Positions 32,782-55,337 of a stretch of 64,000 bases of DNA are shown here, one piece after another. Numbering within the stretch: position 1 is the stretch's first letter; each line of letters begins with the position of its first letter. This stretch comes from Escherichia coli (GTDB lineage: Bacteria > Pseudomonadota > Gammaproteobacteria > Enterobacterales > Enterobacteriaceae): assembly GCF_048403405.1 (NCBI RefSeq), contig NZ_CP183129.1. The stretch is one strand, 5' to 3'. The notes beneath the pieces are model-generated. The model ran no database searches and had not been told where the DNA came from. It worked only from the letters and a program-made list of their open reading frames with translations. Position numbers and translations under genes: made by a program.

Positions 32782-32929
32782 AACTTTGCCTCAGGCATTA
32801 GAAATAGCGCGTTATTGTACACGGATTAATCGCACTACAAAACAGGATCACAAACATCCTCCGCAAACAAGTATTGCAGAGTCCCTTTGTGATCGCTTTC
32901 ACGGAGCATAAAAAGGGTTATCCAAAGGT

Positions 32930-33025
32930 CATTGCACCAATATGGTGCTTAATGTTTCCATTGAAGCACTATATTGGTGCAACATTCACATCGTGGTGCA
33001 GCCCTTTTGCACGATGGTGCGCATG
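32930..33025. promoter_or_regulatory. NtrC (NRI) enhancer binding sites upstream of glnA
   Basis: Repeated TGCACCA-N-TGGTGCA-like dyads (tgcaccaatatggtgct, gcactatattggtgca, others). Confidence 0.7.
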
Positions 33026-33053
33026 ATAACGCCTTTTAGGGGCAATTTAAAAG

Positions 33054-33071
33054 TTGGCACAGATTTCGCTT
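33054..33071 (+). promoter_or_regulatory. glnAp2 sigma-54 promoter (TGGCAC-N5-TCGCT)
   Basis: -24 GG / -12 GC spacing read directly, about 85 bp upstream of glnA start. Confidence 0.75.
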
Positions 33072-33153
33072 TATCTTTTTTACGGCGACACGGCCAAAAT
33101 AATTGCAGATTTCGTTACCACGACGACCATGACCAATCCAGGAGAGTTAAAGT

Positions 33154-34563
33154 ATGTCCGCTGAACACGTACTGACGATGCTGAACGAGCACGAAGTGAA
33201 GTTTGTTGATTTGCGCTTCACCGATACCAAAGGTAAAGAACAGCACGTCACTATCCCTGCTCATCAGGTGAATGCTGAATTCTTCGAAGAAGGCAAAATG
33301 TTTGACGGCTCCTCGATTGGCGGCTGGAAAGGCATTAACGAATCCGACATGGTGCTGATGCCAGACGCATCCACCGCAGTGATTGATCCGTTCTTCGCCG
33401 ATTCTACCCTGATTATCCGTTGCGACATCCTTGAACCTGGTACCCTGCAAGGCTATGACCGTGACCCGCGCTCCATCGCGAAGCGCGCTGAAGATTACCT
33501 GCGTTCCACTGGCATTGCCGACACCGTACTGTTCGGGCCAGAACCTGAATTCTTCCTGTTCGATGACATCCGTTTCGGATCTTCTATCTCCGGTTCCCAC
33601 GTTGCTATCGACGATATCGAAGGCGCATGGAACTCCTCCACCCAATATGAAGGTGGTAACAAAGGTCACCGTCCGGCAGTGAAAGGCGGTTACTTCCCGG
33701 TTCCGCCGGTAGACTCTGCTCAGGATATTCGTTCTGAAATGTGTCTGGTGATGGAACAGATGGGTCTGGTGGTTGAAGCCCATCACCACGAAGTAGCGAC
33801 TGCTGGTCAGAACGAAGTGGCTACCCGCTTCAATACCATGACCAAAAAAGCTGACGAAATTCAGATCTACAAATATGTTGTGCACAACGTAGCGCACCGC
33901 TTCGGTAAAACCGCGACCTTTATGCCAAAACCGATGTTCGGTGATAACGGCTCCGGTATGCACTGCCACATGTCGCTGTCTAAAAACGGCGTCAACCTGT
34001 TCGCAGGCGACAAATACGCAGGTCTGTCTGAGCAGGCGCTGTACTATATTGGCGGCGTAATCAAACACGCGAAAGCGATTAATGCCCTGGCAAACCCGAC
34101 CACCAACTCTTACAAGCGTCTGGTCCCGGGCTACGAAGCACCGGTAATGCTGGCTTACTCTGCACGCAACCGTTCTGCGTCTATCCGTATTCCGGTGGTT
34201 TCTTCTCCGAAAGCACGTCGTATCGAAGTACGTTTCCCGGATCCGGCGGCTAACCCGTACCTGTGCTTTGCTGCCCTGCTGATGGCCGGTCTTGATGGTA
34301 TCAAGAACAAGATCCATCCGGGCGAAGCCATGGACAAAAACCTGTATGACCTGCCGCCGGAAGAAGCGAAAGAGATCCCACAGGTTGCTGGTTCTCTGGA
34401 AGAAGCACTGAACGAACTGGATCTGGACCGCGAGTTCCTGAAAGCCGGTGGCGTGTTCACTGATGAAGCGATCGATGCGTACATCGCTCTGCGTCGCGAA
34501 GAAGATGACCGCGTGCGTATGACTCCGCATCCGGTAGAGTTTGAGCTGTACTACAGCGTCTAA
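33154..34563 (+). CDS. glnA: Glutamine synthetase
   Basis: 469-aa [27 protein letters not shown]... Confidence 0.95.
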
Positions 34564-34624
34564 TAGTTGAAGTTGTACTACCCGGCGCAACAACGCCGGG
34601 ATTTAGTTGCCGTGGAAACTTTCA

Positions 34625-34651
34625 GCCCATCTCTGCATGGGCTTTTTTCTC
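34625..34651 (+). terminator. Rho-independent terminator after glnA
   Basis: Hairpin gcccatctctgcatgggc followed by TTTTTT. Confidence 0.65.
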
Positions 34652-34694
34652 CGTCAATTCTCTGATGCTTCGCGCTTTTTATCCGTAAAAAGCT

Positions 34695-34720
34695 ATAATG
34701 CACTAAAATGGTGCAACCTG
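34695..34720 (+). promoter_or_regulatory. NtrC site overlapping glnL promoter
   Basis: gcactaaaatggtgca dyad just upstream of glnL. Confidence 0.5.
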
Positions 34721-34736
34721 TTCAGGAGACTGCTTT

Positions 34737-35786
34737 ATGGCAACAGGCACGCAGCCCGATGCTGGGCAGATCCTCAACTCGCTGATTAACAGTATTTTGT
34801 TAATCGATGACAACCTGGCGATCCATTACGCCAACCCCGCCGCGCAACAACTGCTCGCCCAAAGCTCCCGCAAATTGTTTGGTACGCCGTTACCGGAACT
34901 GTTGAGCTACTTCTCATTAAATATCGAGCTGATGCAAGAAAGTCTGGAGGCGGGGCAAGGCTTTACCGATAACGAAGTGACGCTGGTCATCGACGGGCGC
35001 TCGCATATCCTTTCTGTGACGGCCCAGCGTATGCCGGACGGCATGATCCTGCTGGAGATGGCTCCGATGGATAACCAGCGCCGCTTAAGTCAGGAACAGC
35101 TACAGCACGCCCAGCAGGTTGCTGCCCGTGATTTAGTGCGCGGCCTGGCACATGAGATTAAAAATCCGCTTGGCGGTTTACGTGGCGCGGCGCAGCTGCT
35201 CAGCAAAGCATTACCTGACCCGTCACTACTCGAATATACCAAAGTGATTATCGAACAGGCGGACCGGCTGCGAAATCTGGTCGACCGTCTGTTGGGACCG
35301 CAACTGCCCGGTACGCGCGTTACCGAAAGTATTCATAAAGTGGCTGAACGCGTGGTGACGCTGGTGTCGATGGAACTGCCGGACAACGTGCGGTTGATTC
35401 GTGATTACGACCCCAGCCTGCCGGAACTGGCGCACGACCCGGATCAAATTGAGCAAGTGCTCCTGAATATTGTGCGCAATGCGCTACAGGCGCTGGGGCC
35501 AGAGGGTGGTGAAATCATTCTGCGTACCCGCACAGCTTTCCAACTGACCTTACACGGCGAGCGTTATCGGCTGGCGGCGCGAATTGATGTGGAAGATAAC
35601 GGGCCAGGTATTCCGCCTCATTTGCAGGATACACTGTTTTACCCGATGGTCAGCGGCCGCGAAGGTGGCACCGGGCTTGGCTTATCCATCGCCCGTAATT
35701 TGATTGATCAGCATTCAGGCAAAATTGAATTTACCAGTTGGCCAGGTCATACCGAGTTCTCGGTTTACCTGCCTATCAGGAAATAA
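34737..35786 (+). CDS. glnL: Nitrogen regulation sensor histidine kinase NtrB
   Basis: 349-aa ORF with H-box HEIKNPL. Confidence 0.9.
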
Positions 35787-35797
35787 AGGTGACGTTT

Positions 35798-37207
35798 ATG
35801 CAACGAGGGATAGTCTGGGTAGTCGATGACGATAGTTCCATCCGTTGGGTGCTTGAACGTGCGCTCGCTGGAGCGGGTTTAACCTGTACAACATTTGAGA
35901 ACGGCGCGGAGGTACTGGAGGCGCTGGCGAGCAAAACGCCGGATGTGCTGCTTTCAGATATCCGTATGCCGGGAATGGACGGGCTGGCGCTGCTCAAGCA
36001 GATTAAACAGCGCCATCCGATGCTTCCGGTCATCATTATGACCGCACATTCCGATCTGGATGCTGCCGTCAGCGCCTATCAACAAGGGGCATTTGATTAT
36101 CTGCCCAAACCGTTTGATATCGACGAAGCCGTGGCGCTGGTTGAGCGCGCCATCAGTCATTACCAAGAACAGCAGCAGCCGCGTAATGTTCAGCTTAACG
36201 GCCCAACGACCGATATCATCGGCGAAGCGCCAGCCATGCAGGACGTGTTCCGTATTATCGGTCGGCTTTCGCGTTCTTCTATTAGCGTGCTGATTAACGG
36301 CGAATCCGGCACCGGTAAAGAGCTGGTCGCTCATGCCCTGCATCGCCACAGTCCGCGAGCCAAAGCGCCGTTTATCGCGCTGAATATGGCGGCTATCCCG
36401 AAGGATTTGATCGAATCAGAACTGTTTGGTCACGAGAAAGGCGCGTTTACTGGCGCGAACACCATTCGTCAGGGGCGTTTTGAACAGGCCGATGGCGGCA
36501 CGTTATTTCTCGACGAAATTGGTGATATGCCGCTGGATGTGCAGACGCGTTTGCTGCGCGTGCTGGCAGACGGTCAGTTTTATCGCGTTGGCGGCTATGC
36601 GCCGGTGAAAGTGGATGTGCGGATTATCGCTGCCACTCACCAGAATCTTGAACAGCGGGTGCAGGAAGGTAAGTTCCGTGAGGATCTGTTCCACCGCCTG
36701 AACGTCATCCGCGTTCATCTGCCACCACTGCGTGAGCGTCGGGAAGATATTCCCCGCCTGGCACGCCATTTTTTACAGGTTGCCGCGCGCGAACTGGGCG
36801 TAGAAGCGAAGTTACTGCATCCGGAAACCGAAGCCGCGCTGACGCGTCTGGCGTGGCCAGGCAACGTGCGCCAGCTGGAAAACACCTGCCGCTGGCTAAC
36901 GGTAATGGCTGCCGGACAGGAAGTGTTGATTCAGGATTTGCCTGGCGAACTGTTTGAATCAACGGTTGCGGAGAGTACTTCGCAAATGCAACCGGACAGT
37001 TGGGCGACGCTGTTAGCGCAGTGGGCAGACAGGGCGCTGCGTTCCGGTCATCAAAATCTGCTTTCCGAAGCGCAGCCTGAGCTGGAGCGGACGTTACTGA
37101 CCACCGCGCTGCGACATACGCAGGGGCATAAACAGGAAGCGGCGCGGCTACTCGGCTGGGGGCGTAACACTCTGACGCGGAAGTTAAAAGAGCTGGGGAT
37201 GGAGTGA
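35798..37207 (+). CDS. glnG: Nitrogen regulation response regulator NtrC (sigma-54 activator)
   Basis: Start at [12 protein letters not shown]; receiver domain, AAA+ [14 protein letters not shown] motif, C-terminal HTH; 469 aa. Confidence 0.9.
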
Positions 37208-39690: not shown

Positions 39691-39756
39691 AATGGTTCGT
39701 CTTTTAGCCGTTTTATTCAGTATAGATTTGCGGCGGAATCTAACAGAAAGCAAGCA

Positions 39757-40001
39757 AAGAAAAAAGGCGACAGATTACTCTGTCGCCTTTTTTCCTGACT
39801 CATAACCCTTAACGGGTCTTACAATCCTTGCAGGCCGCCAACACACCCTGTTTTTCCATTAGCCGGAACAATCCGTGTTGATTCCATTTCCGTTTAATTA
39901 CGTCTCCGGACGTTTGTCTTCCTGACAATCCTCTGTCTTCGCCTCCTGGCGCTCCTGACCCTCATCCTGAGTCATTGTTCCTGTTAGCGTCCTCGCTCTA
40001 T
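39757..40001 (-). ncRNA. csrC: CsrC small RNA (CsrA-sequestering)
   Basis: Reverse complement reads ATAGAGCGAGGACGCTAACAGGAACAATGACTCAGGATGAGGGTCAGGAGCGCCAGGAGG... with multiple GGA motifs and a terminal hairpin GGCGACAGA...TCTGTCGCC plus T-run; matches CsrC as I recall it. Confidence 0.85.
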
Positions 40002-41029: not shown

Positions 41030-41138
41030 TAAAAAACGCCCCAGTCATTACTGACTGGGGCGGCTAAAATATTCAGCCAAATCCGATTACGTGAAGTAAA
41101 AGGTCTGAAAGATAGAACATCTTACCTCTGTACCCTAC
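41030..41138 (-). ncRNA. spf: Spot 42 small RNA
   Basis: Reverse complement reads GTAGGGTACAGAGGTAAGATGTTCTATCTTTCAGACCTTTTACTTCACGTAATCGGATTTGGCTGAATATTTTAGCCGCCCCAGTCAGTAATGACTGGGGCGTTTTTTA, the Spot 42 sequence with its terminator. Confidence 0.9.
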
Positions 41139-41285
41139 GCGACTAACTTTACTCTTTTTTGTTCAGTTCAGAAAGCACTTTTTGTAATTTTTTTTCAGTT
41201 GTTGCATAGGAATTTCTAATAGCCATCACAAAACGTGACAGCTTATGTTGCTTACTTACGAAAAAAGGGCATGTTCAGGCGAATC

Positions 41286-50231: not shown

Positions 50232-50351
50232 ATGCCTGGCAGTTCCCTACTCTCGCATGGGGAGACCCCACACTACCATCGGCGCTACGGCGTTTCACTT
50301 CTGAGTTCGGCATGGGGTCAGGTGGGACCACCGCGCTAAGGCCGCCAGGCA
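50232..50351 (-). rRNA. rrfA: 5S ribosomal RNA
   Basis: Reverse complement matches E. coli 5S rRNA (UGCCUGGCGGCC...CUGCCAGGCAU) over 120 nt. Confidence 0.95.
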
Positions 50352-50445
50352 AATTCTGTTTTATTAACCCGCTTGTCGCCGGTTAATTTAATCTGTATCA
50401 GGCTGAAAATCTTCTCTCAATCCGCCAAAACAGCTTCGGCGTTGT

Positions 50446-53349
<2,904 letters not shown>

Positions 53350-53532
53350 TCACAACCCGAAGATGTTTCTTTCGATTCATCATCGTGTTGCGAAAATTTG
53401 AGAGACTCACGAACAACTTTCATTGTTCAGTGTTTCAATTTTCAGCTTGATCCAGATTTTTAAAGAGCAAAACTTCGCAGTGAACCTTTGCAGGTACACT
53501 CTGAAGTATTTTTTATTTAATCACTACAGAGA

Positions 53533-53608
53533 TGGTGGAGCTATGCGGGATCGAACCGCAGACCTCCTGCGTGCAAAGCAGGCGCTCTCCCAGCTGAGCT
53601 ATAGCCCC
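53533..53608 (-). tRNA. alaT: tRNA-Ala (UGC)
   Basis: Reverse complement GGGGCTATAGCTCAGCTGGGAGAGCGCCTGCTTTGCACGCAGGAGGTCTGCGGTTCGATCCCGCATAGCTCCACCA. Confidence 0.95.
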
Positions 53609-53650
53609 ATAACATGTAGTTAAAACCTCTTCAAATTTGCGGTGCAAATT

Positions 53651-53727
<77 letters not shown>

Positions 53728-53795
53728 GTAGAGGTTTTACTGCTCATTTTCATCAGACAATCTGTGTGAGCACTGCAAAGCACAGTTCTTTAAGG

Positions 53796-55337
<1,542 letters not shown>

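Follow-up and report, generated by a model that had tools for sequence, protein, structure and literature searches.

The glnA 3′ untranslated region of an Escherichia coli chromosome matches the short, O157-type form of the known small RNA GlnZ (EsrF)

The glnA–glnL spacer and its chromosomal setting

The window, by which is meant the whole 64,000-nt stretch of Escherichia coli DNA that was analysed, has the chromosomal order typA–glnA–glnL–glnG, with typA upstream and on the other strand. The glutamine synthetase gene, glnA, occupies 33154–34563 on the + strand (469 aa; taken from the open reading frame list, and so labelled by RefSeq in strain 118UI) and is closed by a TAA stop codon at 34561–34563; its mRNA is the parent of the RNA dealt with here. 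The next gene, glnL, is at 34737–35786 (+; open reading frame list). The 173 bp spacer between the two, 34564–34736, is their entire intergenic region and is the interval that an earlier note had flagged as a possible source of a small RNA. A 401-bp query around it has matches in 5425 of 5426 complete E. coli genomes and is 100% identical in strain 118UI, where RefSeq lists typA, glnA, glnL, glnG, yshB and hemN and annotates no RNA gene between glnA and glnL. Two open reading frames that enter the spacer, one of 60 aa from a TTG start (34607–34789, +) and the other of 41 aa (34578–34703, −), span the terminator and the glnL start and were set aside as mechanical artefacts.

Upstream of glnA, TGGCAC-N5-TTCGCT at 33055–33070 (+), read directly from the sequence, is a glnAp2-like sigma-54 promoter that would drive glnA–GlnZ transcription in nitrogen limitation, the condition in which glnAp2 is known to act (PMC9731577). 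The strict sigma-54 pattern TGGCAC-N5-TTGCW gave 0 matches, and missed this promoter because its −12 element is TTCGCT. Pattern search also found, upstream of glnA, a pair of inverted repeats of the NtrC enhancer type, TGCACCAATATGGTGCT at 32933–32949 and AGCACTATATTGGTGCA at 32965–32981 (both +); the role of the high-affinity NtrC sites 1 and 2 has been described (PMC3870243). The candidate promoter and repeats fit the published control by NtrC and RpoN. [The same typA–glnA intergenic region, upstream of typA, has a full-length Rfam match on the − strand to the sRNA ES222 (RF02755), at 32863–32970; the match scores 133 bits (gathering score 62) and overlaps the NtrC enhancer site at 32933–32949.] Further Rfam matches at gathering threshold are ordinary for this chromosomal region. 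They are a SECIS_3 element at 4516–4574 (+), CsrC and Spot 42 at 39748–40001 (−) and 41030–41148 (−) respectively, names and positions being in matching order, and a complete rrn operon at 50234–55337 (−) comprising 16S, two tRNAs, a StyR-44 spacer match, 23S and 5S.

The final 88 bp of the flagged spacer, 34649–34736, are identical to K-12 in alignment and are the promoter, operator and Shine Dalgarno region of glnL, outside both the sRNA and the 3′UTR. TATAAT at 34694–34699 (+), read directly, is a candidate −10 element for the sigma-70 promoter glnLp, and abutting it is an NtrC operator, TGCACTAAAATGGTGCA, at 34699–34715 (+), a perfect 17-bp inverted repeat found by pattern search with 0 mismatches. 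The stretch 34724–34739 (+) holds the glnL Shine Dalgarno sequence AGGAG (34724–34728) and its ATG (34737–34739), from the sequence and the open reading frame list. It is known that glnLp is downstream of a terminator (PMC9731577) and that NtrC represses it (PMC9731577, PMC3870243); the arrangement of TATAAT, abutting palindrome and Shine Dalgarno sequence fits such an NtrC-repressed sigma-70 promoter, though a simple promoter scan does not call glnLp because of its poor −35. The earlier proposal that 34564–34736 could produce an sRNA stands for 34564–34648, which is GlnZ; 34649–34736 is the glnL promoter region.

An 85-nt RNA with two hairpins and the GlnZ seed

The stretch that begins right after the stop codon and closes with the U-tract, 34564–34648 (+), is 85 nt long and represents the full-length O157-type, or Class I, GlnZ sRNA, also named EsrF. 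Both of the hairpins that had been noticed past the glnA stop codon are present, at 34581–34600 and at 34624–34643 with a T-run at 34643–34648. Hairpin 1 (34581–34600, +; fold and terminator scan) is CCCGGCG-CAACAA-CGCCGGG, with 7 G-C pairs and a 6-nt loop, and in both minimum free energy (MFE) and centroid folds it is lengthened by pairing of 34575–34580 with 34604–34610. The second hairpin is a Rho-independent terminator and presumed Hfq-binding module (34624–34648, +), in which AGCCCAT pairs with ATGGGCT across a CTCTGC loop before a U6 tail; its stem-loop core is 34625–34642, with an outer A-T pair 34624/34643. This is the conserved terminator of GlnZ, AGCCCAUCU..AUGGGCU plus U-tail, and the K-12 and O111 types have it without any change. 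Between the two hairpins, at 34607–34618 (+), is TTGCCGTGGAAA, an exact match to the conserved GlnZ seed 5′-UUGCCGUGGAAA-3′ of Miyakoshi et al. (2022, eLife; PMC9731577), and exact search finds that seed only this once in the window.

In a 2.3-kb scan, 8 terminator-like sites were found against 2.4 ± 1.5 in shuffled sequence, with both hairpins the top sites on the + strand. Pairing probabilities of the arms are ~0.98–1.0 for both stems, and the seed has a mean unpaired probability of 0.61, with 34611–34616 at least 0.9 unpaired. The MFE of the 85-nt RNA is −28.3 kcal/mol, that of its shuffles −20.9 ± 3.3 (z = −2.27), and 5 of 200 shuffles equal the native stability. Thermodynamics on its own is just modestly above chance, and those 5 shuffles are what could be said for hairpins arising fortuitously in an intergenic spacer. 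Conservation is the strong and decisive evidence: 34540–34670 shows 100% conservation in many lineages of E. coli and the module is kept in other genera, by which the chance reading, given hardly any credence, is refuted.

The segment 34540–34670 is identical (131/131) to that of O157:H7 strain PV15-279 and equally to those of Nissle 1917, the type strain ATCC 11775, and O145 and O121 strains; with the allele shared this widely, the host strain may not be O157. Miyakoshi et al. distinguish three types of E. coli glnA 3′UTR, K-12 (197 nt), O157 (85 nt) and O111 (230 nt) (PMC9731577), and Walling et al. (2022) regard EsrF as Class I GlnZ, with its terminator directly downstream of the seed. EsrF was mapped by 5′/3′ RACE in O157:H7 EDL933 as 85 nt (Jia et al. 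2021, mBio; PMC8092317), its 5′ end being the T that adjoins the glnA stop codon and its 3′ end within the Rho-independent terminator (PMC8092317). The sequence in the window has the same length, the same ends (34564 and 34648) and, at 34598–34606, the GGGAUUUAG motif of EsrF. No difference from O157-type GlnZ is detectable in seed, terminator, position after glnA or the U at position 41, and the RNA differs from EsrF solely in published interpretation, which later work contradicts. That the glnA 3′UTR gives rise to an sRNA, as the earlier note suspected, is supported by the exact seed, the 85-nt length and the 100% identity to O157:H7, and the alignment to published GlnZ which it called for places the region against annotated K-12 glnZ at seed and terminator. 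The glnA 3′UTR here is almost certainly the short GlnZ already published, and nothing at the locus is new: publications of 2021–2022 already cover the RNA with its seed and targets, as well as the three length variants found in E. coli.

The published interpretation of EsrF is of an independent primary transcript, with its own promoter within the 3′ end of glnA, that is repressed by NtrC, induced by high ammonium and acts mainly through GGGAUUUAG on flhB, where binding to the 5′UTR relieves Rho termination and raises motility and virulence. Jia et al. support it with RACE ends identical to 34564 and 34648, with abundance that is unchanged when the glnA promoter is deleted, and with TEX resistance (PMC8092317), as well as with motif-dependent REMSA with flhB and phenotypes in motility and colonisation (PMC8092317). 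The motif reported to bind the flhB 5′UTR is present in the window, at 34598–34606 (+; PMC8092317, and read in the sequence). However, the two later studies (Walling et al.; Miyakoshi et al.) find O157 GlnZ/EsrF to be induced by nitrogen limitation and not by excess, and find that GlnZ arises from glnA mRNA alone, with RNase E required. The proposed promoter was placed 10–35 bp upstream of the 5′ end, inside glnA (PMC8092317); no sigma-70-like promoter was found on the + strand upstream of 34564, which is weak evidence as the scan misses weak promoters and also glnLp. Within the motif, moreover, GGG (34598–34600) is the end of the 3′ arm of hairpin 1, with an unpaired probability of ~0, and AG (34605–34606) is paired, leaving only AUU (34601–34603) exposed (~1.0). 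The independent-transcript model is accordingly judged improbable, and derivation of GlnZ from glnA mRNA is preferred.

Length variants in E. coli and homologues in other genera

The MG1655 record annotates an ncRNA, glnZ (b4836), in the homologous place between glnA and glnL. This K-12 type, or Class III, GlnZ (b4836, 194 nt) shares with the RNA in the window its locus, seed (GUUGCCGUGGAAAC), terminator, glnLp region and validated targets. In a three-way alignment it lacks hairpin 1 and its seed is ~6 nt past the stop codon; a REP-derived long stem-loop is instead between seed and terminator. K-12 GlnZ serves as a substrate of RNase III; the short form in the window is without the long duplex. 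The O111-type GlnZ (230-nt 3′UTR) is in effect the O157 type plus an insertion: hairpin 1, seed and terminator are kept, and the same alignment shows ~145 extra nt between hairpin 1 and the seed. Two smaller differences are a C-to-U change that turns a G-C pair of hairpin 1 into G-U, and the loss of 1 nt after the seed (GGAAA-TTTC). Matches to the ~145-nt insertion with 80–90% identity are present in 285 further E. coli genomes, some with two places, which suggests that it is not unique sequence but a small element, repeated or mobile.

Among 5426 complete E. coli genomes, the K-12 form is present in 1571 and the O157 or O111 arrangement in 3851. The O111 insertion, at 95% identity or above, is in about 994, and the short form, a number derived by subtraction and not directly counted, is in ~2850 (~53%).

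An exact-pattern scan of representative genomes with GCCGTGGAAA-N0-1-TTT-NN-GCCC gave at least 120 loci. Among the matches listed, 73 lie 10–232 nt after a stop codon that closes a GlnA C-terminus, in Citrobacter, Enterobacter, Klebsiella, Raoultella, Kluyvera, Serratia and Yersinia and also in Rahnella, Erwinia, Pantoea, Edwardsiella, Plesiomonas and others; the remaining matches listed are spread over unrelated phyla, as chance would give. The 3′ 45 nt, which comprise a U-rich run, GUUGCCGUGGAAACUUUCA, GCCCAUCUUCGGAUGGGC and the U-tail, are nearly invariant in the glnA-linked loci listed. In part this invariance is circular, for the seed and the terminator's 5′ arm were already prescribed by the pattern; no such circularity touches the linkage to glnA. 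The part upstream of the seed is absent in Pantoea, Mangrovibacter and Cedecea (UTRs of 50–64 nt), in Serratia, Enterobacter, Klebsiella and Kluyvera consists of a GC-rich stem-loop whose sequence is unrelated, and elsewhere has long insertions. ERIC/IRU repeat sequence is present in the long glnA 3′UTR insertions of Citrobacter werkmanii, Citrobacter sp. R56 and Enterobacter sp. Bisph1; in the C. werkmanii insertion the ERIC2 primer matches at 22/22 positions and the reverse complement of ERIC1R at 21/22. The variable part of GlnZ in these three is therefore a repeat-element insertion. The window's glnA 3′UTR has no ERIC element.

It could be held that the segment is a terminator or attenuator only, which separates glnA from glnLG and stabilises glnA mRNA, with no trans-acting RNA in this strain. 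The terminator itself is real, by fold and by scan, and the literature describes, upstream of glnLp, a terminator of moderate strength by which glnA mRNA is stabilised (PMC9731577). But such a role leaves unexplained why the 12 nt of the seed stay invariant in many genera where the flanks vary freely, and why three validated targets are specifically complementary to the RNA. Published experiments show target regulation by the identical sequence, and terminator and sRNA roles can coexist. A terminator-only role is considered very unlikely, and the segment is taken as the source of GlnZ.

Rfam 15 has no GlnZ family, as found with a permissive scan of 33000–36000 and a gathering-threshold scan of the whole window. 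The single match of the permissive scan is to Ysr49 (RF02766), at 34544–34648, with 34.1 bits (E = 4.4e-4), below the gathering score of 95; the glnA 3′UTR locus of Y. pestis NCTC5923 scores 159.7 bits with the same family. Ysr49 is the complete 124-nt glnA 3′UTR of Y. pestis, starting from the first base past the stop codon; it shares seed and terminator with the RNA in the window, and its upstream two thirds are unrelated in sequence. On this comparison Ysr49, which is among the 73 glnA-linked loci, is the Yersinia GlnZ ortholog under another name, and the RNA in the window is a Ysr49 homolog through seed and terminator and not a member by the Rfam cut-off. The text of the Walling et al. preprint mentions neither Yersinia nor Ysr. 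The general plan recurs in SroC (from gltI), CpxQ (from cpxP) and SdhX (from sucD), each with a 3′ terminator as Hfq-binding module, an upstream seed and RNase E release; their parental genes, seeds and regulons differ from those of GlnZ.

Release, target pairing and the place of hairpin 1

GlnZ of K-12 and Salmonella is made from glnA mRNA alone, needs RNase E and Hfq, and acts only once it is released from that mRNA. For the O157 form, GlnZ/EsrF, induction by low nitrogen and seed-mediated repression of glnP, sucA and aceE, this repression with support from compensatory mutations, are published (Miyakoshi et al., PMC9731577; Walling et al.). Expression, processing, Hfq dependence and physiological role in this strain are inferred from that literature on the identical sequence. 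By extension, NtrC~P would activate the sigma-54 promoter glnAp2 under nitrogen limitation, and glnA transcription would end at the intrinsic terminator at 34624–34648. RNase E, together with Hfq, would then free the 3′UTR near the stop codon, and the freed RNA would pair through the seed UUGCCGUGGAAA and its flanks (34601–34624) with the sucA and glnP leaders and, in E. coli, with that of aceE. By repressing 2-oxoglutarate dehydrogenase, the uptake of glutamine and pyruvate dehydrogenase, such pairing would keep carbon flow in balance with nitrogen supply.

What the analysis itself establishes is sequence identity, seed, terminator, conservation and predicted target pairing. For the last of these, the 24 nt 34601–34624 were set against K-12 leaders with RNAduplex and compared with shuffled seeds. 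The sucA leader pairs at −52..−27 with −22.1 kcal/mol (0.8% of shuffled seeds do as well), that of glnP at −22..−11, just upstream of its Shine Dalgarno sequence, with −18.4 kcal/mol (4.2%), and that of aceE at −105..−91 with −20.8 kcal/mol (0%). All three predicted sites are at the published positions and are better than those of 95.8–100% of shuffled seeds. The aceE site includes the published C-99 position and engages U41 (34604), and a U41G mutation in GlnZ is known to weaken control of aceE. The sucA leader is identical base for base in 118UI and O157:H7 PV15-279, both of which carry the short GlnZ allele, and around the glnP site 5403 of 5426 genomes have an identity of at least 99%. [Over 101 nt that include the GlnZ site, the sucA leader is only 90–95% identical to K-12 in 1114 of 5425 E. 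coli genomes.]

Strict RN|WUU motifs, of the kind cut by RNase E, are found by motif scan at 34600|34601, 34601|34602, 34619|34620 and 34642|34643, the first two falling inside GGGAUUUAG and immediately 3′ of hairpin 1; the scan finds none at the stop codon, where the O157 5′ end was mapped. To judge from the motif positions, a cut at 34600–34602 would yield a species of ~48 nt that starts 6–7 nt upstream of the seed, and this could conceivably correspond to the 'processed species' on published O157 blots.

The practical value of the finding is in annotation. The short allele appears to be in about half of complete E. coli genomes and is unannotated in the PGAP records examined. [The GlnZ region is unannotated in the non-K-12 PGAP/RefSeq genomes that were looked at, K-12-type matches also being given as 'none'; the curated MG1655 record alone lists glnZ.] As Rfam has no GlnZ family, the Yersinia form is named Ysr49 and PGAP leaves a gap, GlnZ can escape automated pipelines and blastn searches that use the K-12 sequence, and the authors of an EPEC RIL-seq study reported that GlnZ had been missed in that way.

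Hairpin 1 belongs to the variable part of the RNA, other genera having there stem-loops of different sequence, or none. Comparison with UTRs from the nearest relatives, those of Kluyvera and Citrobacter gillenii, in an alignment where MAFFT misplaced the E. coli 5′ part, gave just 3 pairs with double changes and a covariation term of +0.28, which at best weakly supports a stem-loop of variable size at this place. We see hairpin 1 as a lineage-variable accessory stem-loop. There is some slight chance that it determines which species is active, the 85-nt RNA with the edge of its seed partly occluded or the ~48-nt product of a cut at 34600–34602, or else that it adds targets such as flhB. If so, the commonest GlnZ allele of E. 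coli would have a regulon or kinetics unlike those of the K-12 model.
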